From Naegleria gruberi (Eukaryota): a stretch of 64,000 bases of DNA. Numbering within the stretch: position 1 is the stretch's first letter; the number at the start of each line of letters is the position of its first letter. A program made the position numbers and the translations under genes. The DNA is taken from NCBI GenBank assembly GCA_000004985.1, contig GG738900.1; one strand, given 5' to 3'. The notes beneath the pieces are model-generated. The model was given only the letters and a program-made list of their open reading frames with translations. It was not told where the DNA came from and searched no databases. Shown one piece after another: positions 2,154 to 50,789 of this stretch.

Positions 2154-2188
2154 ATTTTACTTTTATATTCAAAATAATTACATGGGCA

Positions 2189-2548
2189 TTAACAATATTG
2201 TTTTTGAAATTCCCTCAATAATACATTAACATCATCACTATCCTCCAAGACTAATATGGTCCTCGTTGAAGTTTCCCACAAGCCAGCATAATCTAATTCC
2301 TTCCTTTGCTCTGGATCATAGAAATATGACAATCCATTATCATTAAATTCCTCTCTTAATACTTGAAGTAAAATACCTTGTTTTGGATAAACAGCCAATG
2401 AAATAGTTCGTTGGTGTATTCCTCTGATGAATGTTATGTGTTTGTCATCTAAATTTCCTAGTGCACCACTCTTTGAAAATCGAATCGACTTTCGTTTTCT
2501 TTCAGTGTGTGGGACAAAGTCTTTTTCTGTTGATTTTGAGATGAACAT
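2189..2548 (-). CDS. Hypothetical 119-aa protein (copy A)
   Basis: Intact ORF. Its copy at 10179..10538 differs by 2 aa. Codon usage resembles expressed genes. No family recognised. Confidence 0.45.
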   Translation of the reverse strand: MFISKSTEKDFVPHTERKRKSIRFSKSGALGNLDDKHITFIRGIHQRTISLAVYPKQGILLQVLREEFNDNGLSYFYDPEQRKELDYAGLWETSTRTILVLEDSDDVNVLLREFQKQYC

Positions 2549-2799
2549 TGTTTGAATTGGTTTACTGGTCGGTTTGTTTTTTTGAAGCTAGAAATGAGGC
2601 TGGAAAATTCTTTTTGAAAAACGCTAAAATGGTACGAATGACATATTAAAAAGGAAACAAAGCAGGTCAGTAAACCTATCTCTAGTCATGGAGTGTCAAC
2701 ATTGATTGTTCTCATTTGGAGATAATAAATTCATTTGCAAGAGATGCTAATTACATTAGGAAATGTTAAAAAGTCAATCAATTTGATTGAAAATTCATT

Positions 2800-7285: not shown

Positions 7286-8177
7286 TACTAGTGTTGTATG
7301 TTCACGAGGTGATGTTAATGATGATGGTAGTGGTAGAGTATTTTGATTATTTGATGATTCATTCGAATGGTCTACTAGGGAATTTCCATCCCTCTGTTGT
7401 TTTGTTATTATTATTATTATATAAAGATGAATATAGTAATATTACATATTAAAATTGTTGTGTTTAGAGAATATGAAAATATACATACTGGTGTTCTGGT
7501 AAATTTGGCTTTTAATCTTTGAAACATGTTTTAAAGCCTTTTTCTTCCGAATAAATAATGTTATATGATATACTATTGTAGTTTTTGTGTTGATGATGGA
7601 GAGTGTTGATGATGGTGATGATGATAATTGTTTTGAAAACACAAGAAGAATGGATAATACTATCTACAAGTATAAAAGTGTGTTGTCCTATTCTCTATTC
7701 AAAGATAATAAAAACAATCAACAACAATAGTAATGGATAATAAATATGTTTTTCAAAGAAGAAGGCTTTGTTTGTTTTTGTTTTTCTTTTAAATAACTAC
7801 TTGAGTATCAAAGGTGGGAGAATCTTTTGAGCTTCCTTTAATCTTTTGGAAGCCACGGCCCAAAGTAAAGCGCTCATTTTGAGTCCGATTCAAGTGAGGC
7901 AAATAGCGCTAGTTTCTAATAGTCTACAAGAATAAATAGTCATGATACCATTTCGGAGTCATTGGAAGGTTTAGAATAAGGGAGGAAGGAAGAATATTCT
8001 AATGTAAAAATAAGTCAAAGAACGATTTGGATTTTCAATGTATTGCAATTTGATAATATACTTTCTATTTGAATAATACAAGAAGCTATTAAGGATTGAC
8101 TTTAAACTCTAAAAAACAAGCGCATTTATTTGCAAGTAACTTTGGGATAGTGTTTAGTTTTTGAAACAAAAATCAGA

Positions 8178-8251
8178 TACCGACAATGGGGCTCGAACCC
8201 ACGACCCCAGGATTAGAAGTCCTGTGCTGTATCCAACTGAGCTATGACGGC
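8178..8251 (-). tRNA. tRNA-Arg (anticodon UCU), copy A; variant with D-stem C13:C22 mismatch
   Basis: The reverse complement folds as a cloverleaf: GCCGTCA acceptor, GGTTCGAGCC T-arm, anticodon loop CTTCTAA. D-stem GCTC/CAGC, versus GCTC/GAGC in copy B. Confidence 0.55.
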
Positions 8252-8449
8252 TTTACGTTTCTTAGAGATCAAAACATCTTACATGAAATCCTTGATATTT
8301 TTCTGTAGGCTCCATATTTATTTAGTTTAGATTGATAAGCTTTTAACGTCATGTGCCACATCATTCTTTCATAATTTTATTCAATGGGATCTATTAAATC
8401 CAAATAATAACTATGTAATAGTTACAATAAAAAAATTAAATATTAAAAA

Positions 8450-9343
8450 ATGTCATCACAGTGTGATGATTTAACTCTTCCGAATAATCAAACCAATAAA
8501 ACATTAAAAGGTTATCAATCTAAACTAAATAAATTACAAACAATTACATATAGTGATTTATTTGGATCCAATGATTATATTAACGGTTCAATTATTTGCA
8601 TTTATTCTGATAATATTAATTATTTAATTTTAATTTTATCTAAAGATGTTAATACTATTCATGTTTTAAAATTTAATTTTGATCCAATTCATAAATTAAT
8701 CACAAATAAGGAAATATTTACTAAATATGCATTGAAACAGGATGTTAAACATTATCAATATTTTTATTCATTGAAATGTGAAAAATGTTTTTTAATTGCA
8801 AATATAATTAATATTCATTTATCAGAATTATGGAAAGTTGAAATTGAAAGTGGAAATATAATTTGGAGAAAGGAAATTCATGGAATTAATTCAATTGTTC
8901 AAGATGAAAGAGGAATTTTATTTTTAAATTCAAGTATTACTAAAAATGTGCAATTATTAGATTCCAAAACAGGAAATTGTCTTGGTAAAATTTCAATTGC
9001 ATCTGGTCATAGAATTTCAAATCATATTGGATTGGATTTTAATAATAATTTACTAGTTTCTAGTTTTACTAGGAGAGGATCATATTTACAAATTATTTCT
9101 AAAAAAGGCAACATTTCAAAAATAATACCATGTACACAAAATACGATACTCACACTATCAGATCCATATTATAAGAAAACATTTATACTAGAATCAGGAA
9201 ATCATGTTGTGGATGTTTATGATTCTGAATATACTAAATTAGAAGTATTGAATTTCACTTCACCAATTTTTTTATTTGCTTTTGTAAATGATTGTAATTT
9301 TATAATAACAGTTGGTCCTAGGGAAATATCTTTATTTGATTGA
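8450..9343 (+). CDS. Hypothetical 297-aa protein (copy A, intact)
   Basis: Long ORF with typical codon usage. Paralogous copy at 16521..17400. Confidence 0.45.
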   Translation: MSSQCDDLTLPNNQTNKTLKGYQSKLNKLQTITYSDLFGSNDYINGSIICIYSDNINYLILILSKDVNTIHVLKFNFDPIHKLITNKEIFTKYALKQDVKHYQYFYSLKCEKCFLIANIINIHLSELWKVEIESGNIIWRKEIHGINSIVQDERGILFLNSSITKNVQLLDSKTGNCLGKISIASGHRISNHIGLDFNNNLLVSSFTRRGSYLQIISKKGNISKIIPCTQNTILTLSDPYYKKTFILESGNHVVDVYDSEYTKLEVLNFTSPIFLFAFVNDCNFIITVGPREISLFD

Positions 9344-9399
9344 AAATCAATAAACAAGAAGAAACCAACACTCTTGCTTATAAAGATTACATCAAACTG

Positions 9400-9692: not shown

Positions 9693-10146
9693 GAATTTCA
9701 ATTCATTATTTAAAATTATTAAATTTGTAAATCAAGATTCAATTTATTTATTTATTAAATTTATTTATAAATTAATTAATGATAATAATTATGAATTAAA
9801 TATTATTAGAATTGTAACATTATTATATTATCAATATCAATATTATAATGATTTAAGATTTTTAGAAGGTTTAAATAGAATTATTATTTTAATTATAATT
9901 GGAAAGGAAGATTATTATGAAAAAATGTTATTGAAAATGCAACAAACTGAAAGAAGTGAATTGGAAAATTATGAAAGATTTTTATTAAATTCACAATTAT
10001 CTATTTTTATTAGAGAAAAATTATTACAACCACTTTCAGATTTGAATGCAATTAATATGATGAGTAGTACACGTAGTATTTTGGAAAATTATATTAATCA
10101 ATTCAATACTGCCACTGCTACTGGTAATCAAAAGAAACGTAAATAA
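9693..10146 (+). CDS. 3' portion of the Asn-rich hypothetical gene (copy B; 5' part lies in the gap)
   Basis: Translation matches the C-terminus of gene 1 (…LLKMQQTERSELENYERFLL…GNQKKRK) with an ATA insertion. Confidence 0.4.
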
Positions 10147-10178
10147 ATTTTACTTTTATATTCAAAATTACATGGGCA

Positions 10179-10538
10179 TTAACAATATTGTTTTTGAAAT
10201 TCCCTCAATAATACATTAACATCATCACTATCTTCCAAGACTAATATGGTCCTCGTTGAAGTTTCCCACAAGCCAGCATAATCCAATTCCTTCCTTTGCT
10301 CTGGATCATAGAAATATGACAATCCATTATCATTAAATTCCTCTCTTAATACTTGAAGTAAAATGCCTTGTTTTGGGTAAACAGCCAATGAAATAGTTCG
10401 TTGGTGCATTCCTCTGATGAATGTTATGTGTTTGTCATCTAAATTTCCTAGTGCACCACTCTTTGAAAATCGTAACGACTTTCGTTTTCTTTCAGTGTGT
10501 GGGACAAAGTCTTTTTCTGTTGATTTTGAGATAAACAT
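10179..10538 (-). CDS. Hypothetical 119-aa protein (copy B)
   Basis: Paralogue of 2189..2548. Confidence 0.45.
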   Translation of the reverse strand: MFISKSTEKDFVPHTERKRKSLRFSKSGALGNLDDKHITFIRGMHQRTISLAVYPKQGILLQVLREEFNDNGLSYFYDPEQRKELDYAGLWETSTRTILVLEDSDDVNVLLREFQKQYC

Positions 10539-10793
10539 TGTTTGAATTGGTTTACTGGTTGGTTTGTTTTTTTGAAGCTAGAAATGAGGCTGGAAAATTC
10601 TTATACGCTAAAATGGTACGAATGACATATTAAAAAGGAAACAAAGCAGGTCAGTAAACCTATCTCTAGTCATGGAGTGTCAACATTGATTGTTCTCATT
10701 TGGAGATAATAAAGTCTCGACAATTCATTTGCAAGAGATACTAATTACATTAGGAAATGTTAAAAAGTCAATCAATTTGATTGAAAATTCATT

Positions 10794-13700
10794 TTATTCT
10801 TCTTTTGATTTAATTATATCATCATTAGAGATATTGATAATAACATTATCATTTGCACTATTAGGCAGCGTATTCATTCCTGTATTACTAGTGGTCGTAG
10901 TATTTGTATTATTTGTATTATTAGTATTATTATTATTTCCATTATTATTATTATTTGTACTACTTGTACCATTATAATATTGTTTTAAGAAATCACCTTG
11001 TTGTTCAGTTTGTGAGAATGCAAATCCACGATAATTAAATTTAGCAACACTTGTAACAGCAGTTTCGAATACCTTCTTAATTTCTTGTAATTCTACGACA
11101 TTGAACTTTTTCTTTTTCTTCATCTTGACAGGTAAACCTTCTTCGAATGGGAAATTTTCCAAAATTTCTTGTCTTGATTTCTTTGATTTCTTTCTTCCTT
11201 GAATTTGGTAATAGGCATTTCTTGAACGCATTCTAACAAATCCTTTCCAGAATATATCTCTAATACAACACATAAATGTTACTAATAAAACAATCATGTA
11301 AAATTGTGGTGTTAGGAATATTCTCCATCTTTCTGTAATTCCATAAAATTCAGATATAACTGGATATGGATATCCAAATATGTAATAAATACTTCCATAA
11401 ACAAATATAAATGCAGGCCATGATAATAAACTTCCAGTATAAATTAAAACATTAACCCATGTCCAAGATGATGTTTCAATACATAATTTAAGTGAAATTA
11501 CAACAAGTACACATGAATAAATGACAATACCAATAGTTTCTGGATCAATATCATGTCCATCAAGGAATTTGCTATCAACCAAACAATAATATGGAACAAA
11601 GAAACAAACAAGTGAATGGAATAATGAATTAACAACCCATGATATAAATACTTTAGCATTGAACTAAAGTATTTTAAAACATTTCATATAATGATGATGA
11701 TTATTTGTTTACATAGAACAATAGAAAAAATATAGTTAATAATTAATAAAATTACTAAATAAATAATAAAAGAAAACTACTTACAAATCTATTCTTTTGA
11801 CCTTGATAATAAAGTTCTGGGAATTTTTCAGCAACATCAGCTGATACATCTCTATCCATAACAGCTAATACAATAATTGGTAAACCAGAGAATATTAAAT
11901 TGTAAAGAGCAATAGTCCACTTATCATGAACAGTTGCACCTGAATAACCATTTGAGAAAATATACCACAATTGTGTTAAATATAAAAGACTATTCTTATA
12001 GAAACAATAGAGAACTAATTTTGAAACTCTTCTATAACTCCATCTACCATGAACAAGTAATAAACGTTTGAGAAATCTAAATTGACCAATTGCATAATCT
12101 GATGCATTCACTGCTTGTAATCCTTCTTGTCCTGAAATACCAATACCAACATGAGCACTTTGAATCATACTCACTATTATTATTTAATTGTTAATATGAT
12201 TAAATATATAATATAATATTAAATATAATATATAATATATAAGATGTGATTAAATATATAAGATTAAATATAAATATGAAAACATACCATCATTACTACC
12301 ATCTCCAATAGCTAAAGTAATACTATCAACATTATTCTTAATTAATAAAACTACATCTGATTTTTGTTTAGGTGAAACTCTACAACAAATAACCGATTTA
12401 CACTTGACACTCAAATTTAAGAATAAATTTCTCAAAGTATTTCCAGTATTAGCTGGATTGAGTGGATTATTATGTTCACCTTCTAAAATGGTTAATAATT
12501 TGTCACCTTCAACAACAAGACCCAATGCATCTGATGAAGAAATACCTTCACATGTTGATAAACTCTTTTCAAGGAAAGTTTTCAATTCTTCAATTGTATT
12601 TCCTTCAACTATTAAAAGTGTCATTCCAGAATTTAATAAATCACATGCAAAACCAATGTTAATAGCAGTTTCTAATTTGTCACCAGTCAATACCCAAATA
12701 TTAATACCTGCTCTTCTTAATTCATAAATTGTATCTCCAACTCCTTGTTGTAATTTATCTTCAATAGCTGTAGCTCCAACAAATTGTAAATTCTTTTCAA
12801 TTTTAGAACCAACCATTTCAACTTTAACTTGACGATTTTCAAGTGAAGTTTTAGCTTCTTCATATTCTCTATGCCATTGTTGATATTCTTCTTCATCGAG
12901 ATAAGCTTGAGCACATAACAATGTTCTCAAACCTTCATTACCAAATTGATCTAAATGTTCCAATGTAATTGGTCCATATTTTTCAACAGATTCTTCATTT
13001 AAAAGTGGATAAATCATTGAATCTGCTCCTTTGGTCATTATTAATAATTTACCTTCTGGATCTCTAACAATGACAGATTGTCTCTTTCTATCACTTGAAA
13101 ATTCAATAATATCTAATACTTGATATTCTATCGCTTCATTTTCCATTATTTTAATAGTAACTGTATTGGTAGTTCTATTAATAAATTCAATACCTAAATA
13201 TTTAGCTGCTTTAACAAGTGCTGCTTCATCAGGTGAAGAAGCTTGATAAATAATTTCATTTGGTTTGTTGTGACTTCTTTCAGGAATAACTGTATGACAA
13301 ACTGCTAACAAGGTAATGAAATTTTGAATATCTTGAGCATTTTCTTCATTCATCCAAGCTCCATCATTCATTCTCTCATCAAAGAATTGGAAATTTGGAT
13401 TATTTTTAACATGTTCAGGTCTATCATCTATAAGCGTAATGCCTTGTCTCTTGGCTGCTACATTGGCAATTTCAGTGATACCTGAACCATATGTTTTACC
13501 AGAAATTGAACATTTCATGACTGTTTTTATGATTGTTGTTGACAAAACAATTGTTATAACACTAATATGATTCAAAAAAAAACTTACAGTCCATCTTATT
13601 TTCAGTTAAAGTACCAGTCTTATCTGAAAAGATGTAATTAATTTGACCCAAATCTTCATTTAAAGCTGAAGATCTAACAAGGGCAGGAGTATCTGTAGCC

Positions 13701-15341
13701 TCATGATACATTGCTAAATCTTGACTAATCATAATACCTTGAACTAATTTAGCTGCTTCAATTGAAACGTAAAGTGAAATTGGAATTAAATTTGTAAGTA
13801 GAATGAGAATTGTCCAATATCCTTTAAATCCATTCCATGCAATATATTCAGAATCAATGACAACATCACGGAATAAATACCATGCTCCAGCATTAAAATT
13901 TGTCCAAACCATCAATGCAATATCACAACTCAAAACTAAAATGATTTGAACTACTAAAACTAGTAAAATTAACTTGTTAATCATTCTTTCAATTTTACTA
14001 ATTTTGTGTGGAGTTTCTCTGTAAAAATATTAAATATATCATTAAATATCATTATTAAATATCATTATATCATTAAATATCATTATATTAATAAGAGTAT
14101 CATGTCATTAAATTTCATAATTGATAATAATAAATATATAAGAATGGTTTAAAATAAAACATACTTTGTGTTCATCATTAATTTAGTATCGTGTCCAGTG
14201 AAAATTGCAACACCAATCATAAAATCAGTATTTTTCAATGAAGATCCACGTAAACAAATTTGTTCAGTATCAATGGATAATTTCTTTCCATTACTCAATA
14301 CCATTGTACCTTCAAATTTATATAATCTATTGTTTGGTTTTTCACATTCCACAATCATTCTAGTTTTATCAAGTGCTTCAGGTGTTGAAAGTTCCAAAGT
14401 TTCATGACGACATCTCTTAATTTTTAAATTAGTTTCACTTTATATCCAAATTAATATCCAAATTAATATGAATTCAATTGATTTTCCAATTTCCAATTTA
14501 ATAAAATCAACAAGTTAATCAACATTCAATCCATAGAAATAACATACCCATCCAAACTTGAAGTTTCAACATAACATAAACCTTGTGATTCACTTGAAGA
14601 AACAAGAATTAAATCACAAGGAAATGGTTCCTTATTATCTACTTTAACAATATCACCTGTTTTTACATCTTTCCAAAATATATCCTCAAATTTGTCACCT
14701 CTCAAAACATGAGCAATTCTATTATTTGTAACTCTATCAGAATAGAGTCTTTTAATATCTTCATAAGCATCTTTAATCATTGTACAAATCAATACTATTA
14801 ATAGTCATATATTAGATTTTGTTTAGTATAATACCTCCAATATAATACTTACCAAATGCTAAAGGAAAGAATGCTGTAAATTGACCTGTTGGTGACAATG
14901 TTGGAATAGTTTGCAAAACTGCCATAAATAAAAAATCTATTTTCACAAATATTTCATCATCCATTATTCAAATATTGTACAATTATAATATTTCATCATT
15001 CAAATAAGTGATAAATCATTAAAATACTTACAACAATTTGCAAATCTATGAAATTGTTCATATAAATTCTTAAATAAAAAGTTGTAGAAAGTATATTTAG
15101 TAGTCGTTATGGAATTATCAATAAATTTGTTGGTGGCGTTTGACATTTCATCATTTGCAAATAGTAATCTAGTTTTTGTTGCATCATGTTGTTGTTGAAT
15201 ATTAAAAGTATTAAAGGCTCCAACTTCATTCCCAGTAAACATATCCGATATACTTCTATGTTGTGTTGATGGATTATTAGTACTATTATAATTAGTATTA
15301 ATTGTTGCAGAACTCATAATAGCAGTACTAGAATTTGACAT
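10794..15341 (-). CDS. Phospholipid-transporting P4-type ATPase (flippase), copy B, complete, at least 7 exons
   Basis: Exons at 15000..15341, ~14848..14930, 14526..14792, 14149..14397, 13562..13984, 12250..13575, 11755..12174 and 10794..11650. Motifs DKTGTLT, TGDKLETA, GDGSNDG and MIQSAHVGIGISGQEG…VHGRWSYRR are present. Confidence 0.85.
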
Positions 15342-16254
15342 TACTAGTGTTGTATGTTCACGAGGTGATGTTAATGATGATGGTAGTGGTAGAGTATTTT
15401 GATTATTTGATGATTCATTCGAATGGTCTACTAGGGAATTTCCATCCCTCTGTTGTTTTGTTATTATTATTATTATATAAAGATGAATATAGTAATATTA
15501 CATATTAAAATTGTTGTGTTTAGAGAATATGAAAATATACATACTGGTGTTCTGGTAAATTTGGCTTTTAATCTTTGAAACATGTTTTAAAGCCTTTTTC
15601 TTCCGAATAAATAATGTTATATGATATACTATTGTAGTTTTTGTGTTGATGATGGAGAGTGTTGATGATGGTGATGATGATAATTGTTTTGAAAACACAA
15701 GAAGAATGGATAATACTATCTACAAGTATAAAAGTGTGTTGTCCTATTCTCTATTCAAAGATAATAAAAACAATCAACAACAATAGTAATGGATAATAAA
15801 TATGTTTTTCAAAGAAGAAGGCTTTGTTTGTTTTTCTTTTAAATAACTACTTGAGTATCAAAGGTGGGAGAATCTTTTGAGCTTCCTTTAATCTTTTGGA
15901 AGCCACGGGCCAAAGTCAAGCGCTCATTTTGAGTCCGATTCAAGTGAGGCAAATAGCGCTAGTTTCTAATAGTCTACAAGAATAAATAGTCATGATACCA
16001 TTTCGGAGTCATTGGAAGGTTTAGAATAAGGGAGGAGGGAAGAATATTCTAATGTAAAAATAAGTCAAAGAACGATTTGGATTTTCAATGTATTGCAATT
16101 TGATAATATATAACTTTCTATTTGAATAATACAAGAAGCTATTAAGGATTGACTTTAAACTCTAAAAAACAAGCGCATTTATTTGCAATTTTTGAAATAT
16201 TAGAAAATTAGAGGAAAGTAACTTTGGGATAGTGTTTTTGAAACAAAAATCAGA

Positions 16255-16328
16255 TACCGACAATGGGGCTCGAACCCACGACCCCAGGATTAGAAGTCCT
16301 GTGCTCTATCCAACTGAGCTATGACGGC
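16255..16328 (-). tRNA. tRNA-Arg (anticodon UCU), copy B, canonical D-stem
   Basis: Same sequence as copy A except G22 restores the C13:G22 pair. Both copies share a T5:T68 acceptor mismatch and a G1:T72 wobble. Confidence 0.65.
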
Positions 16329-16520
16329 TTTACGTTCCTTAAGGATCAAAACATCTTACATGAAATCCTTGATATTTTTCTGTAGGCTCCATTTAGTTTA
16401 GATTGATAAGCTTTTAACGTCATGTGCCACATCATTCTTTCATAATTTTATTCAATGGGATCTATTAAATCCAAATAATAACTATGTAATAGTTACAATA
16501 AAAAAATTAAATAGTAAAAT

Positions 16521-17400
16521 ATGTCATCACAGTGTGATGATTTAACTCTTCCGAATAATCAAACCAATAAAACATTAAAAGGTTATCAATCTAAACTAAA
16601 TAAATTACAAACAATTACAAATAGTGATTTATTTGGATCCAATGATTATATTAACGGTTCAATTATTTGCATTTATTCTGATAATATTAATTATTTAATT
16701 TTAATTTTATCTAAAGATGTTAATACTATTCATGTTTTAAAATTTAATTTTGATCCAATTCATAAATTAATCACAAATATGGAAATATTTACTAAATATG
16801 CATTGAAACAGGATGTTAAACATTATCAATATTTTTATTCATTGAAATGTGAAAAATGTTTTTTAATTGCAAATATAATTAATATTCATTTATCAGAATT
16901 ATGGAAAGTTGAAATTGAAAGTGGAAATATAATTTGGAGAAAGGAAATTCATGGAATTAATTCAATTGTTCAAGATGAAAGAGGAATTTTATTTTTAAAT
17001 TCAAGTATTACTAAAAATGTGCAATTATTAGATTCCAAAACAGGAAATTGTCTTGGTAAAATTTCAATTGCATCTGGTCATAGAATTTCAAATCATATTG
17101 GATTGGATTTTAATAATAATTTACTAGTTTCTAGTTTTACTAGGAGAGGATCATATTTACAAATTATTTCTAAAAAAAGGCAACATTTCAAAAATAATAC
17201 CATGTACACAAAATACGATACTCACACTATCAGATCCATATAATAAGAAAACATTTATACTAGAATCAGGAAATCATGTTGTGGATGTTTATGATTCTGA
17301 ATATACTAAATTAGAAGTATTGAATTTCACTTCACCAATTTTTTTATTTGCTTTTGTAAATGATTGTAATTTTATAATAACAGTTGGTCCTAGGGAAATA
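16521..17400 (+). pseudogene. 297-aa hypothetical gene, copy B, with frameshift in an A-run (~17175) and downstream stop
   Basis: Copy A reads ctaaaaaagg (6 A) but copy B has 7 A. The ORF terminates at 17243 although homology continues to ~17400. Confidence 0.5.
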
Positions 17401-24147: not shown

Positions 24148-25272
24148 TTAGAAACATTTTCTGCGAACAATTACACAGCCAGCTTCTTCATATTCCTCTG
24201 CTGTTATCCACATGGGTTGAAAGGTAGATAATGAGGATAGAATACTACCACCAATCCAAACAGAATATTTTCTTTCAGGTGGAGCAACAACTTTAATCCT
24301 CGTTGAGGCTGGAGCCATAGCTGCCAATTCCTTATTCATTCTCTCATCAATTCCTCCAAACATGGTTGTACCGCCTGAAAGTACAACATTGACATATAAA
24401 TCCTTTCTAATATCAATATCACATTTTCCAATGGAATTGAAAGTTGTTTCGTGAATACCAGCAGCTTCCATTCCAATAAATTTTGGTTGGAATAATACTT
24501 CTGGACATCTAAATCTCTCGTTACCAACTGTGATAACGTTACCATCTGGTAATTCATAAGAGGCTTCAATGGATGAGCTATCAGATGCTTTCTTCATTTC
24601 AGTTTCAAAATCAAAGGCAACATAACAAAGTTTTTCCTTAATATCTCTGACAATTTCACATTCAGCACTGGTGTTGAAACTGTATCCACGTTCCATCAAG
24701 ATTTTCATCAAGTAATCAGTCAAATCACGACCTGCTAAATCCAATCTCAAAATGGCCTGAGGCAAAGCATAACCTTCATCGATTGGAACAGTATGTGAAA
24801 CACCATCACCTGAATCCAATACAATACCAGTACTTCTACCAGAAGCATACAAGGACAATACAGCTTGAATGGCCACATACATGGCTGGAACTCTAAAGGT
24901 TTCGAACATGATTTGAGTCATCTTCTCACGATTTGCCTTTGGATTCAAAGGAGCTTCAGTCAATAAGACACCATGCTCTTCAGGTCCAACTCTCAATTCA
25001 TTATAGAATGTATGATGCCAAATCTTTTCAATATCATCCCAGTTGGTAATGATTCCATGCTCAATTGGATATTTCAGAGTGATAGTACCCTTCTTGGACA
25101 TGGCTTCATCTCCGACATAGGCATCCTTGTACCTAACACCAACCATAATTGACCTTTGTTTGGGTCTACCAATCAATGATGGGAAAACAGCACGAGGAGC
25201 ATCTTCACCTGCGAAACCTGCTTTACACATTCCAGAACCATTGTCAATAACGAGAGGTCGATGTTCTTCCAT
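24148..25272 (-). CDS. Actin (divergent paralogue, 375 aa)
   Basis: [26 protein letters not shown]…[14 protein letters not shown]…LSGGTTMF…[13 protein letters not shown]. Roughly 80% identity to canonical actin by eye. Confidence 0.9.
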
Positions 25273-25513
25273 TTTGTTTGCAGTATAAACTTGTTTTTGA
25301 GTCTTTTTATATATTGTTTGTGAAAATATCTCAATTGTAAGCTCTGGATTTAGTTTGTCTTCAAATACTAAACCATTGTTCACTGTTCCTTGTCCTCAAC
25401 TTTGAATTACAGTAAAATATTACATCTCATTCTGTTTTAATCTTTATAATTTTCACAGATACATTATTCATGAAGAAGAAAATCAAAGTTTGAATAAGAA
25501 AATCAAAGTTTAA

Positions 25514-41365: not shown

Positions 41366-42187
41366 TTAATAACACTCATCGTCAGGATAATCCACAATTC
41401 CATACATGAGAATATTGGAATAATCACAATTTATAACAACAGAATCCATTACTTCCTTTTCCATTTGCTTTTTCGTTTCCTCTGCTTGTTTACGATACAA
41501 TTTAGCTTTTTCTTTACCCACCTCAAAGGTTGCTACGCACATTGATTCATAATCCATGTCAGATACATGGTTACGCTCAACAAGCTTTGAGTATAGATGC
41601 TTATCAGTCCTATAGATGTATTCCACAATTTTGCTTCTACATGGTTTTGCATGTTTCGAAATATCTGTGTGGGTATCGGTTGAGATCAGATTCATGTCGT
41701 TAGATATTGGGCCAACAATTGAAAGAACTACAAACGAGGATAAATCATTGTAAAAAGCCATGTCCATAGTAAGAATCACATTCTTGTTTGTTTTCAATTC
41801 ATAGGTTGTTCTTGTAACGCTAAAACAAAATGAATACCCTTTCGAATGGATAAGAAATTCTAAATTTTTGCACATGTTGGACTTTTGGCACTCTTTCCTC
41901 TTGTAATTCAAGGTTTGGTTACACTTTGTGGTATGTTTGAGCGAAATTTGAGGCTCCTTAGAATAGGTTGTTTTTTCCTTCAGCCAGTAATTTTGTTCCA
42001 TTAAAACATATTCTGATAAATCATAAAAAGTTTCATTGTAGGATGTTTTTGATTTGAATGTAAACAGAGGAAGAAGACTTTTTTCTAACTGCTCCTTGCC
42101 CATAATAAAGTTGAATTTTGTAATGATTGCACTGTCGTGGGCAACATGATCTAATAAACAATCTTGATATACGAATCTTGTGTTCAA
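41366..42187 (-). CDS. Hypothetical 273-aa protein (orphan)
   Basis: Intact ORF. No recognisable domain. Confidence 0.35.
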   Translation of the reverse strand: MNTRFVYQDCLLDHVAHDSAIITKFNFIMGKEQLEKSLLPLFTFKSKTSYNETFYDLSEYVLMEQNYWLKEKTTYSKEPQISLKHTTKCNQTLNYKRKECQKSNMCKNLEFLIHSKGYSFCFSVTRTTYELKTNKNVILTMDMAFYNDLSSFVVLSIVGPISNDMNLISTDTHTDISKHAKPCRSKIVEYIYRTDKHLYSKLVERNHVSDMDYESMCVATFEVGKEKAKLYRKQAEETKKQMEKEVMDSVVINCDYSNILMYGIVDYPDDECY

Positions 42188-42220
42188 TGTATGATTGTTT
42201 AAAAGTTATTAAGGTAAAAA

Positions 42221-42340
42221 GACTACAGCACCACAGGTTCCCAAGTTGTCTCCAACCTCAGTACTGATGTGGCTCGACGATGCTTACCTTCTCAAATCGG
42301 ACGGGATGAGATGCATTCATCGTGATATGGCCGTAGCCAT
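42221..42340 (-). rRNA. 5S ribosomal RNA gene, copy 2 (two substitutions relative to copies 1 and 3)
   Basis: Reverse complement matches copy 1 except C>T and T>G. Shares a 21-bp 3' flank (TTTTTACCTTAATAACTTTTA) with copy 1. Confidence 0.75.
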
Positions 42341-42428
42341 TCATTTATTTAAGTTCTGAGTCATAAATCTTTAAGCAACAGTTAGGATTGTAAGGAATAT
42401 ATTTTAATCAAGATTTTGGTTTGTTCTT

Positions 42429-42508
42429 CACTATGAACATGCTTGACTCACAACGTTGATCACAGCTAAGCCATTGTGAAAATAATTGAGTCAAGCATGT
42501 TCATAGTG
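42429..42508. repeat. Perfect 22-bp inverted repeat (stem) with 36-nt loop
   Basis: cactatgaacatgcttgactca … tgagtcaagcatgttcatagtg. Each arm is followed by CAACGTTG. Confidence 0.7.
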
Positions 42509-42741
42509 ATCAACGTTGTGCAGGATGTAATAGTTAAAGTTCATACTTTGCTCAAAATGGGAAGTTACTACCCTTAATAAGACCAATTTAAAAGAAAACA
42601 TTCATGTTCAATTTAGGAACTTTTAGAATTTTGACTTATTTTATTATCATCCACAAAGAAACCATTGTGCCAGCTCTTGTTGGTGCTAAATATGCTTGAT
42701 TTGGGTTATGTAAATTTCAAAGTGCAGAACATTTGAAAAAA

Positions 42742-45700
42742 ATGCTGAAAAACAGCATAACAGTAGATTTGAGCGGTAAGGACGGAGAAGATGGTCATCA
42801 AGGCAAGAGGTAAGAGTACATACCTCAATTTTTTTGATGTTAATATGTTGCCGAATTAGTGGACGTAATGGTGAAGTGGGAAAGGTAATGTTTCTAATCT
42901 CCCTTAATCATCATAAAATCACTGTTGTAAAATAGTCAGGGAAAAGTGGACAAATATCTGCCTTAAATAATGGAAATGGAAGTCATGGAGAACCAGGAGG
43001 ACCGTAAGTATATATTGCTGGAGTGAAATTAGCCATGTGTTAATAGAGGTGGAGATGGAGAGAATGGTGGAAAGTAAGTTCTAGCTGTTATTGAGTACTT
43101 GACCTTATTTAATATTCCTTCTCAACAACAGTGGAAAAAAGGGGCAACACGCAACAGCTGGTGGAAATATTTAAGTAAAAATTGAGGGATCCAATCACAA
43201 GTTAATCACTTTGAGTGGAAGTATCAATGATTCTGTGTGTTTGAATGATGGTGCTGGACAAGTTTTGGTGTTTCTGGCGAATGGTGGAAATGGTGGAAAG
43301 TGAGTATCAGTGTAGCTTTGATTTGAAGTGCTTACAATTATAGAGGTGGACGTGGAGGACCAGGTGGTAAGTTGCTGAATAGCAAACACGACTGAGAATG
43401 TAATTCATTCAGGAATGGGGGGAGTCGGCGGAAAAGGAGGAACTGGAGCAAGAGGTGGTAATGGTAGCTCTGGAGGTAATGGTATGAATGGTCAAGATGG
43501 TGGCAATGGAGGAAAGTAAGTATTGAATGATTGAGACAATTTTGAAACTAATAATTATTTCAGTGGTGGCGTGTAAGGAGAAATACAAGTTTAGTTAGTT
43601 GATTGAAATTTAGTGCTGGAAAAGGAGGAAATGGTGGAGAGTAAGTTTTAATAATTGGTTGGAAATTCATATGTGCGTTTAACAAGTGGAGGGGAAGGAT
43701 CCAAGTAGGTTTTTCAATTATTACAACTATTTTAATGTGGAATAGTGGTGGAAATGGTGGAAATGGAGGAAGTATTCTTATTGAAACAAATAATGCTTCC
43801 TTGTTGAAGTTTGTCAAAGCAGAAAGTCAACCAGGTAAAGGAGGAATGGATGGAAAAGGTGGCTCTGCAGGAAGTGCAGGTAAAGGAGGAGAGAAAGGAC
43901 CTGGAGGACCTGGTGGTAGAGGTGGTGCAGGAGGAGCTGCAATGGGAAGAGGAATAATCAATACAAGATCTGGATCCAATGGAAGGAATGGATCAGATGG
44001 AAAATCTGGACAAAAAGGTCAAGAAGGAAGGAAGGGAAATCCAGGACACACTGGACAAGATGGTACACCAGGAAATTTAACCATTAGAGTCTATGATCCT
44101 CTTACTAATCAACTTGTGGAGGAAGGTCATTCAATTTATAATTTGGTGGTAACAACATTCGAATTGTGTGGCTATGAAAATGATGGAATTTTTGAACCAG
44201 ATGAAAATGTCTTTATTACCAACGTTGGTGTTAAGAATCAAGGAGGATTGACATTACCATCAGGTTCAGTTCTCTCATTTCCAAGCACTCAAACATTTAT
44301 TTCAAACGGTGAATGTTATGTTTTGGAGAAGAATTTGGCACCAGGCGAATTCTTTTCAATTCCTTTCCAATTTTATGGTCGAGTTGTTGGAAGGAAACAA
44401 AAACAATTTGGCCCTTTCAAGTCAACAATTAGCATTCAATCAAGTGCTTGTCTGTTAACTTCTCCATTTAGTGAAGGTTTTGTTAAGAAGGAATATCCAG
44501 TTCAGTATCCAATAGTATTGGAAAGTGTGAAAGTTCCTAAAAGTTTGGGAAGAAATGAAAAAGGAACAGTTACAATCACCGTAAAGAATCAATCTCTTAT
44601 CAATTATGGCTCTTCATTGGGTGATGGATACAGAATTAAGTTTTGTTTAACTCTGGATTCAACGTATATCATTCTAACAGAAACAAGCGCAACTAATATA
44701 TTTGAAGAGGAAATTCCCTTCATCCAAGCAGGAATGTCATACTCTAGAACGTTTAACATTGAAACAACTATCAATGCCCAATTCTATGAAACCATTCCAA
44801 TTCAAACAAATTTATTTTTGAGAGGACATCCTATTGAGGAATCATTGAACTCCATTCGTATTCAACCAACATACATTCCAACTAATCTCGATTCTCCAAA
44901 TCCTTTCGATGTGCTCTTCTTCTCAGATAAGCACATTAATAGGCAGGAATTTTCAAATTACATGTCCCTGCTTGGTAGAATAGGATTGAACGTGAATGTA
45001 TGGGATATTGAGAGATACGGTGGACTATCTTATAATAATAAGGGTAAGAGACATACAAAATCATGGATTGATGGTGGTTATGAAGGTAAAATGATAATAA
45101 TGCCTCTTATGGAACAAGGCTCTGAAAAACAAATGGCTGTCTCAGATATTTTCCAACATTTCAGGGGCAAAAATTGGCAAAATGATTCATCAAAACCAAA
45201 CAATGGATCTATCGTTTTTATCGGTAACCCTTCTGATTCATTCAAAAGTCAACTCTTTGGCGAATGCTCAGCCCAACAAATCCCAGAATCTGAACTAAGA
45301 GAAATGTTTCTGCTTTCTGAACCGAATGAAAGCTCAATGCTTAAGAAAGCAACAGAGTTTATTAAATCCCTCAATAAGACACATCCATCAAGGGTTTATA
45401 GAACTGAAAATGTGTTATTCAATCCTCAAAAAGATGGCTCATTATCAAAAACTTTATTAGGATCAGCTGATTATAAGGAATTACCCTTAAGCACTGCTGA
45501 TGCTTTATATTTCATTCCAACAAAGAGTGGAAACTCTTCTGGATTCATGAACGGAGGTATTACACTTCAAATTGAAAGCAAATCAAATATTGGAAAATTG
45601 CTTAACACTATTCTATATTCACTTCCTGTTGAGAAAAAATTGGAATTGTTAAGGAAACCAACCGAATGGCTTTCCAAAGTTCAAATTAAGGATGAAAATG

Positions 45701-45960
45701 GTGATTTACTTAATTATGTAACTTGTATTATCTTTGCTCTAAGCTTTAATCTGTTTTTGGAAATAATTTACAACGATGAAAATGGAAGATTTTCAACGGG
45801 TATTGAAGCAGATTTTGAAGCACATTTTGATGAATATAAGAATCATCCTCAATCCAAACAAATTGTTGAAACTCTATATTTGGTATTAAAGAAACTTGGC
45901 AGTGAATTAAAATGGAGAGGAACATCGGTACCTAGCATTAAGGAAAGGAAAAACCTATGA
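42742..45960 (+). CDS. Collagen-like / Gly-rich repeat protein with C-terminal globular region; ~10 micro-exons then a 2.2 kb terminal exon
   Basis: Exon 1 encodes MLKNSITVDLSGKDGEDGHQGKRG… (GXY). Repeated GGNGGNGG(K) and GXY tracts (GRNGSDGKSGQKGQEGRKGNPGHTGQDGTPG) in tiny exons are separated by 50-90 nt GTAAGT..AG introns. Exon boundaries are approximate. Confidence 0.5.
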
Positions 45961-47060
45961 AACTGTTTACAAAGATTTGAAAAGCATTCTCCTCAAGATT
46001 TCATCGGAACCTGCTGAATTTTTGAAGAAGGAGACCAAGACTCGTATTGGTTCTATTTCAACGGATCACTTCTTATGTCAGTTGGAGAATTTCACTAGAC
46101 CACTATTGGAAAGTTATCATTTGGAAATGGAGAAGGAACTTAGTGTGGATGGAGGAGATCATGGACATTCTCATTGACATCCTCATTGAAAAATATCACT
46201 GGAATGAAGTTGTATTATTACTCAGTTTGGTGAACTGTGCAATAAAAAAACAACTTTTAAATTCATAAAACTTTTATTGTCGTTTAAGTACCTTACTCAA
46301 CCAGATACAATAATAATGCAATTTCAAATGGAGCCAGTGCGACATCTCTAATTTTACTTGGAATTCAAATTATTCTTCAAGATAGCCCTCCACACTTGAA
46401 TAAATATTCTCTCTCACGACAGTATCAGTAACTTCTTCAAATCCTTCAATATTATTTTCCTCATCATCATCGTCACTATATTTACTAGGATTCACTTGTC
46501 CCTCTCCAGCTTTACGAACCAATTTTTGTACTTCGTAGATAATGGCATAAATTCCATCTTCATCATTACTCTTTGGTTATTTATTCTCTTTGGTTAATCT
46601 TTTCATTACATTGCTGATTTGTGTGCTAACTTCATCATCACCTGCATCAGTATACATTCCATACATTTTTTTCTTTTGTGTGGCTGGTATGTTAAAACAA
46701 TGATGAACTTAAACATCCTAAAGGTTTACATTCGGTGAACATAAACAATTCTAGAAAAAACGAAATTTTGTAATGGCATTCTGAGTTCACATTCAATTTT
46801 TATCAGTTTCCATTCAATACAACTTTCCATCTATACCTCTAAATAGACTGGTTAATTGTTTTACTTCTGATGTAACATTTACAATGACACATAATCAAGC
46901 AAATCTTAGAGATAGATATTCGTAGAATTAGTTGTTACTGTGAAAAACAACCAACTTCCCAAACTAATCTTCGGAGTTGTTTTTGGAATTTTGTCAACTC
47001 CTCAACTTCTTTAAAAAGAAGGACATTATGATAATCTTATACAAGAAAAAAACAACAAAG

Positions 47061-50000
47061 ATGAATCACAAAGGTTTTGCATTGCTTCTTGTGTTAACAT
47101 GTCTGTTGTTTATTACCATTCATCCAATAATGACTAGTGAACAAATTATTCGAAACCTTGCCGGTCAAGGAATATGTGATGGTCATTTATCAACAAATGC
47201 ACCAGTCAATCCCAGTGATTGTGCCTTTTTGGATGAAGAAATGTTAATTGCAGATGCCACTAATCATAGAATTCGTAAAGTTTTCACAAATGGAACAATT
47301 GTAACCATAGCTGGAAATGGATTTGCTGGTTACAATGGAGATGGTTTAGATGCAACAAGTGCTCAATTGAACAATCCAGTTGGCATTTATGTTGATACCA
47401 ATAGTAGAGAAGTTTACATTGCTGATTCTAATAATCATCGAATTCGTAAAATATTACAGAATGGAAAAATTACAACAATTGCTGGAACAGGAATTGCTGG
47501 CTACAATGGAGATGACAAAAGTGCAGACAGTGCCCAATTGAACACCCCAAGTGGAATTGTTATTGATCCAAATAATGGAGAAATTTTCATTTCAGATTCT
47601 AAAAATCACAGAATTCGTAAAATTTTACAAAATGGTAAAATTACAACAATTGCTGGAACTGGAGAAGCTGGTTACAATGGAGATGGAATTGAGGCAAAGT
47701 TTGCAAAATTGTATCTACCAAACGGAATTGATTTGTATGAGAAAGAGTTGTTTATTGCTGATCAAAATAATCATAGAATTCGTAAAGTTTCGCTTGATAC
47801 TGGACTAATTTCAACTATTGCTGGAAATGGAAATTCAGGTTACAATGGAGATAACATTCTGGCAACAAACTGTAAATTGAGTTTACCTGCAGGAGTTAGA
47901 TACGATTCGAAAAGAAGAGAAGTTTACATTGCTGATTCCAACAACCAAAGAATTCGTAAAATATTAGAAAGTGGAATAATTGTAACAATTGCTGGAACAG
48001 GAGAAGCTGGATTTGATAATATTCTCAATGCTACCCAATCAAAGGTTAATCATCCTAATAGTGTTACTTTGAACGAATTAGGGGAAGTTTTCATTTCAGA
48101 TTCACAAAATTATCGAGTACGAAAGATTACAACAGAAAGTGGAATAATTACAACAATTGTAGGAAATGGATTTGAAAAGTATTGCACAGATTTAGCTAGT
48201 AACACACCATTGTTTTATCCTCGTGGTATAATTTCGAATGAAAATGGAGAATTTTTCTATGCCGATTCTAGCAACCATTGTATTCGAAAAATTCTGACAA
48301 ATGGTACAATTCTTACAATTGCTGGAACAGGTACTAAGGGTTACAATGGAGATGGAATTGAAGCAACAAGTGCTCAATTAAATACTCCTCACGATGTTGC
48401 ATTAAACTTGGCAACTGGCGAGATTTACATTGCAGATACGGAAAATAATAGAATAAGAAAAATTTTGACAAATGGTACAATTACAACAATTGCAGGAACT
48501 GGAGATTATGGATACAATGGAGATGGAATCATGGCTGTAGATGCATGGTTGAATGAACCGAGTGGTGTTGAAATTGATTCCACTAGCGGTGAAGTTTTCT
48601 TTTCTGATACTGAAAATTTCAGAATTCGAAGAGTTTCGAATAGTGGAATAATTACAACAATTGCAGGAACTGGAAAATCAAAATTTAATGGAGATGGTAT
48701 GGCAACAGACACGAATCTTGCTACTCCAACTGAAATTCAATACGTTCCAAGTACTACTGAAATTTATTTTGCTGATTCTGGAAATAATAGAATTAGAAAA
48801 TTTACTATAAATGGAATGATGACAACTATTGCTGGAACAAGCACAAGTGGATATAATGGTGATAATATGCCTGCAACACGTGCTTGGTTGAATTTTCCAG
48901 TTGGTGTAACATACGATCCAAAAACCAATCAAGTTTATATTGCCGATTTATCTAATCACAGAATTAGAAAAATTCTGACAAATGGTACAATTACAACCAT
49001 TGCTGGAACAGGAAAAGGAGGTTATAATGGTAATAACTTGACAGCCTTATCCACTCAAGTGAATGGACCTCATGGAATGATACTACAACCGAATGGTGAT
49101 GTAATCTTTTCAGATAGCACCAATAATGTCATTAGAATTATCAGATCTGATCAAATTTATTGTAATGGAACATTGTCAAGTGATTTGAATGTTTGTAATG
49201 GTCGTGGTTGGTGCATGGAGAGTGGAAAATGCTCTTGTCAAGACGGATGGATTGGTGATTATTGTTCAGAGCCAACATGTGAAAATGATTGTTATGGACA
49301 TGGAAGATGTGTTTCGAATAATACATGTGAATGTGAATATGGTTGGGATGGAAACTCTCACTGTTCTCAATTTTCATGTGGTGGATTGAATAATTGTAAC
49401 TCGAATGGTTTATGTGTTTCGAATAATACTTGCAGTTGCCAATCAGGATGGGCTGGAACTGATTGTTCTCAATTTACTTGTTCTGGCGCTAGCAATTGTT
49501 CAGATCATGGTTCCTGCATTTCGAATAATACTTGTCATTGCAATTCTGGTTGGAAAGGAAATGCCCAATGTTCCCAATTTACTTGTGAACTCACAAATGA
49601 TTGTTCGAATCATGGCTTGTGTGTTTCGAATAATACTTGTCAATGTAGTTCAGGTTGGAATTTCATTAATTGTTCCATCAAAGAATGTCTCATTTCAATT
49701 GTTTCAGGTTCAAGAGAATTGATATGTGGAAATGATAATTCTTCTGGTCAACTGAAAACATTTAGCAGAATAACGACTCCAGTAATTGAAACAACAAGTT
49801 TCGAATTGAATGAAAATCAACATGTAAATGTTGATATTGGATCAAGAATAATGAATTTGGATCTATCTCAAGACAAGTATTTCATAACCTCTTCATGGAC
49901 CAATTCGAATAATTTATTCTTTACCAATGTTTCCAATTTACTAATTCAAAACTCAGGTTCATCACTTATTCAAGCAGAACTTTCAACAAAAATCAAGTAT

Positions 50001-50789
50001 TCTTTCACGCATCATTCAAATCTTGATATCATGTCATTTAACTATAATTGTTTAAGATTTGACATCCTGTCACATTTGTGGACAAATCAATCCATAACAA
50101 CAAGCATTTCTCCACAAACTAACTCCATTACATGCACAACTATATTCATTTCTTCAGTAGTTGTTCAAAGAACTTTAATCCCTTCACCATCAATCTCACC
50201 AAAACACTCATCAAATCCATTTCCATCAATTTCACATGAAAATTCAATTCCACTCCCAAGCGATGAGACAATTACATTGAATATCCAACCTGGAGAATCA
50301 ATTCTCTATCAAATAACTCTTCCATCCATGAAAAGACTTTCACTTTCGTGTAAAACAATTTCAGGAAGAGATTTAAATTTGTTTATTGGAGAAAATTTCA
50401 AACCGTCTTATGAAATGTACTCAAAAGTTATGAATTCTAATCAGGAAATGGATTTTGAAAATTGGAAGTCGATATACCAGGTGTTTTACATTCGAGTTCA
50501 AGGTTTGAAAGATTCAACAACTCAATTCACTATAAGAGCTTCAATTAGTCAACTGAGACAAGTGAATTCTTCGAGTGGAGCAAGAAATGATAATTACACC
50601 ATTGGATTAATCGTCTCAAGTGTTATTTCACTTCTATTATTAATCATTACCATCCTAACTGTTCTTAGTTGTGTTTTCTATTGGAGAAAGAAACGTAAAC
50701 TTATGGAAGAAACCAGAACGAAACTACTTTCAACTCCTAATTCGCTTCAGTATTCACCTCACCAACCGTATGAAATGGAGGAAGCATAA
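47061..50789 (+). CDS. Type I membrane protein: signal peptide, ~12 NHL beta-propeller repeats, ~5 tenascin-type EGF-like repeats, TM, short tail
   Basis: Repeated …IADSNNHRIRKI…TIAGTGxAGYNGDG…AxLNxPxG… units. Cys-rich CxxxGxCxCxxGWxGxxC modules. TM IGLIVSSVISLLLLIITILTVLSCVFYW followed by RKKRK. Confidence 0.7.
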   Translation: MNHKGFALLLVLTCLLFITIHPIMTSEQIIRNLAGQGICDGHLSTNAPVNPSDCAFLDEEMLIADATNHRIRKVFTNGTIVTIAGNGFAGYNGDGLDATSAQLNNPVGIYVDTNSREVYIADSNNHRIRKILQNGKITTIAGTGIAGYNGDDKSADSAQLNTPSGIVIDPNNGEIFISDSKNHRIRKILQNGKITTIAGTGEAGYNGDGIEAKFAKLYLPNGIDLYEKELFIADQNNHRIRKVSLDTGLISTIAGNGNSGYNGDNILATNCKLSLPAGVRYDSKRREVYIADSNNQRIRKILESGIIVTIAGTGEAGFDNILNATQSKVNHPNSVTLNELGEVFISDSQNYRVRKITTESGIITTIVGNGFEKYCTDLASNTPLFYPRGIISNENGEFFYADSSNHCIRKILTNGTILTIAGTGTKGYNGDGIEATSAQLNTPHDVALNLATGEIYIADTENNRIRKILTNGTITTIAGTGDYGYNGDGIMAVDAWLNEPSGVEIDSTSGEVFFSDTENFRIRRVSNSGIITTIAGTGKSKFNGDGMATDTNLATPTEIQYVPSTTEIYFADSGNNRIRKFTINGMMTTIAGTSTSGYNGDNMPATRAWLNFPVGVTYDPKTNQVYIADLSNHRIRKILTNGTITTIAGTGKGGYNGNNLTALSTQVNGPHGMILQPNGDVIFSDSTNNVIRIIRSDQIYCNGTLSSDLNVCNGRGWCMESGKCSCQDGWIGDYCSEPTCENDCYGHGRCVSNNTCECEYGWDGNSHCSQFSCGGLNNCNSNGLCVSNNTCSCQSGWAGTDCSQFTCSGASNCSDHGSCISNNTCHCNSGWKGNAQCSQFTCELTNDCSNHGLCVSNNTCQCSSGWNFINCSIKECLISIVSGSRELICGNDNSSGQLKTFSRITTPVIETTSFELNENQHVNVDIGSRIMNLDLSQDKYFITSSWTNSNNLFFTNVSNLLIQNSGSSLIQAELSTKIKYSFTHHSNLDIMSFNYNCLRFDILSHLWTNQSITTSISPQTNSITCTTIFISSVVVQRTLIPSPSISPKHSSNPFPSISHENSIPLPSDETITLNIQPGESILYQITLPSMKRLSLSCKTISGRDLNLFIGENFKPSYEMYSKVMNSNQEMDFENWKSIYQVFYIRVQGLKDSTTQFTIRASISQLRQVNSSSGARNDNYTIGLIVSSVISLLLLIITILTVLSCVFYWRKKRKLMEETRTKLLSTPNSLQYSPHQPYEMEEA

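Follow-up and report, generated by a model that had tools for sequence, protein, structure and literature searches.

A micro-exon gene of the DUF7932 family in Naegleria gruberi with a glycine-rich module of predicted polyproline-II type

The 64,000-nt stretch of Naegleria gruberi DNA analysed here (contig GG738900.1 of GenBank assembly GCA_000004985.1; hereafter the window) carries on its forward strand, starting from the ATG at 42742, a gene in which glycine-rich repeats are encoded by a series of very short exons and joined to a large C-terminal region. The gene is a member of the eukaryote-wide and uncharacterised DUF7932 family. Taken together, our data are likely best explained by an 11-exon DUF7932 gene whose Gly-rich module is predicted to be of polyproline-II (PPII) type and whose product is a probable cytoplasmic scaffold, the copy in the window being most likely inactivated.

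RESULTS

A chain of very short exons leads into a 2.2-kb exon

Seven open reading frames (ORFs) neighbouring the gene are identical to annotated proteins (EFC39309–EFC39322, on a single 312-kb scaffold), identifying the source genome as N. gruberi NEG-M. The GC content of the window is ~33%, and at least seven of the neighbouring genes are single intron-free ORFs, so that ten introns inside 1 kb stand out locally. The exon chain was built by a script from the three-frame translation and by reading of positions 42000–46800, its splicing being deduced from the DNA sequence and from comparison with homologues. The resulting model has 11 exons and 10 introns (Table 1) and keeps its frame from the ATG at 42742 to a TGA at 45958–45960, giving a coding sequence of 2751 nt. 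All ten introns (41–58 nt) have GT..AG boundaries and six start with GTAAGT. An initial annotation had proposed such a chain from the same ATG into a 2.2-kb exon, and this is borne out, as the chain is frame-consistent and collinear with homologues; Gly-repeat modules on very short exons are indeed fused to a large C-terminal region in a genuine micro-exon gene. The exons are short as it had described, with sizes of 9–168 nt instead of 25–90 nt, while its intron range of 50–90 nt has to be replaced by the one given above. The peptides it quoted are likewise present, except that the junction of exons 1 and 2 reads GKS-GRNG and not GKR-GRNG.

The start codon is backed by the N-termini of homologues (MLKNSITVDLSG in the window gene, MLKASIEVNSSG in the environmental locus L002 and MDLRVVIDKSG in Naegleria lovaniensis). 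The contrast between coding and non-coding segments is far beyond chance, as Gly content is 37% in exons 1–10 versus 3–4% in the introns, GC content is 46% versus 23–37%, and a single stop is found in the 178 codons of exons 1–10 versus 15–18 per ~155 codons of intron in every frame. Retention of any of the ten introns leads to a stop, and eight of them have lengths that are not a multiple of 3. In the N. gruberi nuclear genome the locus forms a gene of 11 exons. Eight of the ten introns are in phase 2 and lie in a GGA-AA|T-GGT context, and exons 4, 8, 9 and 10 (27, 9, 27 and 18 nt) are symmetric phase-2 exons, multiples of 9 nt in length, that encode whole GGX units and are frame-neutral.

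The gene belongs to a eukaryote-wide family

The C-terminal region had been described as devoid of recognisable motifs, but the large ORF matches Pfam DUF7932 (PF25560) at 60.4 bits (gathering threshold 27; E = 3e-16), and the same match is found in 18 of the 18 members of the family alignment (A1). An exhaustive HMMER search of 1.84 billion protein-cluster representatives returned 304 relatives at E ≤ 1e-3 (45 at E ≤ 1e-30), versus only two from a word-indexed protein search, whether its query was the C-terminal 628 aa or a profile of 18 sequences; the family is nearly invisible to k-mer-prefiltered searches. With the two lesions described below repaired, the predicted protein is 988 aa long and collinear with its homologues. 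Residues 6–976 align with residues 5–1094 of N. lovaniensis XP_044550565 (P0012, 37% identity) and residues 13–977 with residues 9–979 of the N. gruberi paralogue EFC46764 (NAEGRDRAFT_79042; P0163, 34% identity), and collinearity extends to sponge, nemertean and rotifer proteins. The named members are N. lovaniensis C9374_002317 ("DUF7932 domain-containing protein"), EFC46764 and, among animals, proteins of the nemertean Lineus longissimus (XP_064649595), the glass sponge Oopsacas minuta (KAI6661803) and the rotifer Rotaria; for XP_044550565, EFC46764, KAI6661803 and XP_064649595, identity to the window protein is 32–37% over 770–950 residues. Among the unnamed members that we inspected, the architecture is always the same and the sequences look to be of eukaryotic origin, some of them seemingly amoebozoan or alveolate. 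The Gly-rich block is present in all 25 representatives with a strict DDGIFEP-like motif preceded by at least 250 residues, the N-terminal alignment (A2) contains 27 invariant Gly columns, and some members carry added PH, SAM or FYVE domains. A search of the accessible literature found no paper mentioning DUF7932, and one on Naegleria and "collagen-like" gave nothing relevant.

The closest relative, at 45–47% identity, is L002, which comes from an environmental assembly (ENA ERZ2098899 NODE_989, 6001–8540). There a GTGAGT intron divides the gene into two prokaryote-style ORF calls (P0016 and P0011), and the Gly-rich exons upstream are uncalled. The flanking regions of the window gene match neither those of the N. 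lovaniensis gene (L001) nor those of L002, so that either would be a putative orthologue at most.

The distribution of relatives bears on the earlier suggestion of a bacterial collagen-like gene acquired by horizontal transfer. In favour of an origin in a bacterium or giant virus, with introns gained later, bacteria and giant viruses commonly have collagen-like repeats, and Naegleria genes otherwise contain few introns. However, all named or inspected relatives are eukaryotic, with full-length collinear homologues in Heterolobosea, sponges, nemerteans and rotifers as well as among the amoebozoan- or alveolate-looking sequences, and Naegleria species have intron positions in common. Viral contigs and the bacterial and archaeal genomes of GTDB were scanned by a method that detects close relatives only, and no relatives were returned; the profile is too divergent for a DNA-pattern scan. 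We therefore regard such a transfer as highly improbable.

Two lesions disrupt the reading frame

The stop ending at 45960, previously taken as the end of the gene, is the product of a 1-nt frameshift. In a tblastn comparison with the closest relative, homology runs in the ORF frame to 45951 and is picked up again in the next frame at 46013 (…LKKETK…). The likely site is a run of five A residues, where dropping one A restores …KERKTYETVYKDL…LKKETK…, and coding homology then continues to a TGA at 46175–46177. An intron at this position was rejected on inspection of the sequence, as the sole candidate that restores the frame (45928–45997, donor GTACCT) would take out residues with homology to P0011 (KENK…). 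A TAA in exon 5 (43172–43174) had also been missed. It lies in frame within a beta-strand block that is kept in all homologues (NI*VKIEG in the window gene, DIRVLIDG in L002 and DIHIVLD in N. lovaniensis). Bypass of this codon by splicing was rejected too, as GT..AG pairs that keep the frame are limited to one of 15 nt, which is impossible, and one of 102 nt, with a poor donor and the loss of the conserved strand block.

Compared with intact homologues, the window gene thus contains a nonsense codon and a switch of frame between 45951 and 46013. As these are two independent lesions, they favour a recently inactivated paralogue or a null allele, which we hold with modest confidence to be the most likely status of this copy. 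Under the alternative of an intact, functional gene, the TAA and the additional A would be errors of the draft assembly or confined to one haplotype. Several features speak for this: the intron boundaries are all canonical, the 2.2-kb exon is wholly open, and the 73 codons beyond the frameshift have stayed open and keep their homology. The window is moreover a draft, interrupted by N gaps and containing a tandem duplication of 8 kb with near-identical copies. Against it, two independent disabling changes lie inside 3.4 kb, both types of error are uncommon in Sanger assemblies, and the protein searches returned no protein identical or near-identical to the window gene product, yet all neighbouring genes were present. 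The searched protein collections thus appear to lack the locus, which is apparently unannotated. We consider an intact gene a serious possibility, if a somewhat improbable one.

The Gly-rich module is predicted to fold as a single chain

The N-terminal Gly-rich module of ~290 aa is encoded by the ten small exons and ends in exon 11. Two short Gly-X-Y (GXY) tracts flank long GGX tracts, and three conserved beta-strand blocks interrupt the repeats. Gly recurs with a period of 3 over 186 of the first 290 residues, and in this respect the periodicity noted in the initial annotation is real; most triplets are GGX, however, and not GXY. Only two tracts are pure GXY (9 and 12 triplets), and Pro accounts for 8 of the 290 residues, a composition that differs from long uninterrupted (G-X-Y)n repeats with non-Gly residues, often Pro, at X and Y. 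In a hidden Markov model search with Pfam Collagen (PF01391) the spliced N-terminus scored 23 bits and the large ORF 21.5 bits, both below the gathering threshold of 27.2 bits. A profile of the module does match collagens in the PDB through its Gly periodicity, and one family member (P0031) passes the Pfam Collagen threshold at 29 bits.

The structure of the module was predicted with AlphaFold2 (AF2) for residues 1–335 of the N. lovaniensis homologue rather than for the window protein. The model has a predicted local distance difference test score (pLDDT) of 85.1, rising to 97–98 in the Gly-rich stretches, which DSSP assigns to neither helix nor strand; conserved strands are found at residues 4–8, 75–115 and 185–203. 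Its best Foldseek matches are the springtail PPII-bundle antifreeze proteins, although these matches are not significant. The module has period-3 Gly, two Gly per triplet and hydrophilic third positions, and hydrophilic third positions in GGX have been described for natural PPII bundles (bioRxiv 10.1101/2023.11.25.568672). Based on the GGX composition with hydrophilic third positions and on the AF2 model, we infer a single-chain PPII-type fold, comparable to that of the springtail antifreeze proteins, and not a collagen helix of three chains. In this fold one chain would form a compact stack of PPII-type helices capped by beta-strands. Formation of a triple helix by the module appears unlikely on the model, and the Gly-rich front end is probably not collagen.

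The same evidence weighs on the earlier proposal of a secreted, collagen-like triple-helical protein with a structural, coat or matrix function. The Gly periodicity, the two pure GXY tracts, the matches to PDB collagens and the score of P0031 all agree with it. On the other hand, the window gene itself stays below the Pfam threshold, its triplets are mostly GGX and poor in Pro, and the single-chain model of the homologue is confidently ordered over both GXY and GGX stretches, which is unexpected for a chain needing two partners. Nor does the N-terminus resemble a signal peptide, the mean hydropathy of MLKNSITVDLSGKDG being ≤0.6 and dropping to about −2.4 across the first 30–35 residues (no dedicated predictor was used), and relatives carry PH, FYVE and SAM domains. 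A secreted collagen is thus very unlikely.

The micro-exons are shared among Naegleria-type loci

Mapping the annotated protein exactly onto the N. lovaniensis gene gave 17 exons, among them five of 9 nt and others of 5, 18, 27 and 28 nt, separated by introns of 47–180 nt. Five introns of the window gene coincide with N. lovaniensis introns in both alignment column and phase (one in phase 0 and four in phase 2), and two more lie within one column. L002 contains four 9-nt exons (three TGGTGGAGA and one TGGTGGAAA) and two 18-nt exons, and its small exons are all bounded by AG|…|GTAAGT or GTATGT. Runs of 9- and 18-nt phase-2 GGX exons therefore recur in two other Naegleria-type loci, and the exon-intron pattern is older than the split of the Naegleria lineages compared. 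The Naegleria genome reportedly has a mean of ~0.7 introns per gene, so 9-nt exon runs conserved across species are unexpected there.

The small exons hardly differ from one another (TGGTGGAGA-type), and eight of ten introns are in phase 2 and in the same sequence context, which could point to a recent origin through tandem duplication of an exon-plus-intron unit or through an intron-generating mobile element ("introner"). However, pairwise scores between introns were no better than those of shuffled controls in both the window gene and L002, which makes recent unit duplication or introner activity unlikely. In addition, intron positions are common across species, so any duplication must be old, and introns of 41–58 nt are too short for mobile elements.

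C-terminal domains and predicted role

AF2 prediction of the C-terminal 628 aa with an 18-sequence alignment (pLDDT 88.3) divides this region into the domains listed in Table 1. Apart from DUF7932, none of them has a sequence match in Pfam or the PDB. A TIR-like identity of the alpha/beta domain, for which DVLF.T…F..L…G..V..D was the lead, was rejected at the profile level, as hhalign against a validated TIR profile gave a probability of 0.07%; this TIR profile retrieves the structures of TLR, MyD88, SARM1, RPS4 and L6 at E ≤ 1e-35, and Pfam TIR has no match in any family member examined.

Since relatives carry PH, FYVE and SAM domains, the family would be placed in the cytoplasm, at membranes; together with an N-terminus that is not hydrophobic, this is at odds with the secreted coat or matrix protein originally envisaged. 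A rigid Gly-rich platform of PPII type joined to immunoglobulin (Ig)-like domains could act as a cytoplasmic scaffold or adaptor, and this is probably what the whole protein is, judging from domain content and models. In other lineages the added PH, FYVE or SAM domains may tether such a scaffold to phosphoinositide membranes or oligomerise it.

Table 1. Exons, lesions and predicted domains of the DUF7932 gene (window coordinates)
Feature	Start	End	Strand	Description
Exon 1	42742	42809	+	68 nt; start codon; MLKNSITVDLSGKDGEDGHQGK and beginning of first GXY tract
Exon 2	42860	42884	+	25 nt; GXY triplets SGRNGEVGK; next intron phase 0, same alignment column as N. lovaniensis phase-0 intron
Exon 3	42936	43003	+	68 nt
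Exon 4	43047	43073	+	27 nt; phase 2-2
Exon 5	43132	43299	+	168 nt; conserved beta-strand block …NI*VKIEGSNHKLITLSG…VLVFLANGGNGGK; aligns with DIHIVLD… (N. lovaniensis) and DIRVLIDG… (L002)
Lesion 1, in-frame TAA in exon 5	43172	43174	+	aligned to H or R in homologues
Exon 6	43344	43366	+	23 nt
Exon 7	43413	43515	+	103 nt; GGX repeats; following phase-2 intron common to N. lovaniensis
Exon 8	43564	43572	+	9-nt micro-exon, TGGTGGCGT; one GGX unit; phase 2-2; 9-nt counterparts in L001 and L002
Exon 9	43614	43640	+	27 nt; phase 2-2
Exon 10	43687	43704	+	18 nt; phase 2-2
Exon 11	43746	45960	+	2215 nt up to premature TGA; end of Gly-rich module, second GXY tract, C-terminal domains
First Ig-like beta-sandwich (Pfam DUF7932 match)	44143	44508	+	
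Second beta-sandwich (Ig-like)	44485	44862	+	AF2 strands at residues 138–263 of the 628-aa query, pLDDT > 85
Alpha/beta domain	44911	45306	+	family-invariant WD…G.S…W motif; five-stranded in AF2; no known family match
One helix, then long beta-hairpin sheet	45328	45576	+	AF2
C-terminal helical domain	45586	46174	+	AF2; runs on past the frameshift
Lesion 2, A5 run	45949	45953	+	likely +1 frameshift site; dropping one A restores the homologous frame
Out-of-frame C-terminal tail	45954	46177	+	73 codons, open and homologous; true stop TGA 46175–46177

Other features of the window

Within the gene, two ORFs on the opposite strand (43560–43817 and 43827–43979; 85 and 50 aa) are rich in PPFPPF/PPxPP; they merely mirror the Gly codons of the coding strand, GGN being read as NCC, and are not genes. 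About 230 nt 5′ of the start codon lies a near-perfect inverted repeat (42423–42520) with 28-nt arms that are 93% complementary, a 36-nt spacer and an overlapping 15-nt perfect pair; it is found nowhere else in the window and may form a hairpin or represent a promoter element or a small foldback element. Directly downstream, on the same strand, a single-exon ORF of 1270 aa (46977–50789) encodes numerous NHL-type repeats (…NHRIRKI…) together with a block of EGF-like repeats rich in Cys, has a hydrophobic segment at its C-terminus, and resembles a teneurin- or tenascin-like surface protein. A divergent actin-family ORF (411 aa counted from an upstream GTG) is found on the reverse strand at 24148–25383. 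The ~8-kb tandem duplication (1700–9350 versus 9700–17300) has 95–100% identity between copies, a copy spacing of 7987–8071 nt, and carries a flippase-like (P4-ATPase) gene fragment as well as the ORFs 2800–3585/10794–11582 and 8450–9343/16521–17243. One copy has an N block at ~4001–6000. The duplication may be a genuine segmental one or may reflect the tandem assembly of two haplotypes.

DISCUSSION

Several points weigh against the overall explanation given at the outset. The N-terminal structure was modelled for the N. lovaniensis homologue only. The exon map of that homologue comes from an automated annotation combined with our own exact-match search, whose solution is possibly not unique, and for the window gene the inclusion of the frame-neutral exons of 9–27 nt is particularly uncertain from DNA alone. 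As for the status of the copy, the splice sites are intact and both the 2.2-kb exon and the shifted tail are open, which keeps draft errors in play, and the window sequence by itself does not separate a pseudogene from a sequencing error.

The gene places a locus that is unannotated or damaged in a widespread family of eukaryotic proteins that has so far gone uncharacterised. It is also a reminder that gene finders miss or mangle Gly-rich genes of the micro-exon type, and the miscalling of L002 shows that metagenome gene callers fragment this family. The 9-nt exons provide a clean case for the study of micro-exon recognition and of intron gain or retention in repetitive coding sequence. Very few natural domains of Gly-rich PPII helices are known and, if the predicted fold is right, DUF7932 adds a large intracellular example. 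More speculatively, the module might represent a new and unusually large natural class of intracellular Gly-rich PPII assembly, extending from Heterolobosea to animals and built in Naegleria from symmetric 9-nt exons of one GGX turn each, whose skipping or inclusion could tune PPII length in frame; we put this forward tentatively and consider it rather doubtful as a whole.

The window gene shares with the DUF7932 family the Gly-rich module, the DUF7932 sandwich, the second sandwich, the alpha/beta domain and the helical tail, all collinear, whereas its nonsense codon and frameshift, and the lack of the PH, FYVE or SAM additions of some members, set it apart. Its exon pattern is reminiscent of two other kinds of gene, a likeness that is analogy only. 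Fibrillar collagen genes (PF01391; exons of 54, 45 and 108 bp, multiples of 9) also have Gly at every third residue, and here too several exons are multiples of 9 nt with whole triplets, so that the comparison with collagen exons made in the initial annotation is a fair analogy; the exons are in phase 2, however, and not phase 0, and the product is sub-threshold in Pfam, GGX-rich, Pro-poor and not secreted. The schistosome micro-exon genes (MEGs; PMC4350168) likewise have runs of very small symmetric exons that can be skipped without breaking the frame. MEGs appear restricted to platyhelminths (PMC4350168), and their products are small and secreted with coding sequences mostly in micro-exons, whereas the window protein has no signal peptide and only ~18% of its coding sequence (536 of ~2967 nt) lies in the small exons 1–10, of which only exons 4, 8, 9 and 10 are symmetric multiples of 9. 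At the level of the protein, the closest parallel to the predicted fold is offered by the PPII bundles, which include the springtail (snow flea) antifreeze proteins (2PNE, 7JJV), the Obg N-domain, the tip of phage S16 gp38 and the glycine-rich domain of ALK/LTK (bioRxiv 10.1101/2023.11.25.568672). Compared with these, the DUF7932 module gives no hint of ice binding, is much larger (~290 aa), contains beta-strand blocks and would be intracellular, but it has the same long period-3 GGX/GXX tracts with hydrophilic X, and its homologue is confidently modelled with neither helix nor strand in these tracts.

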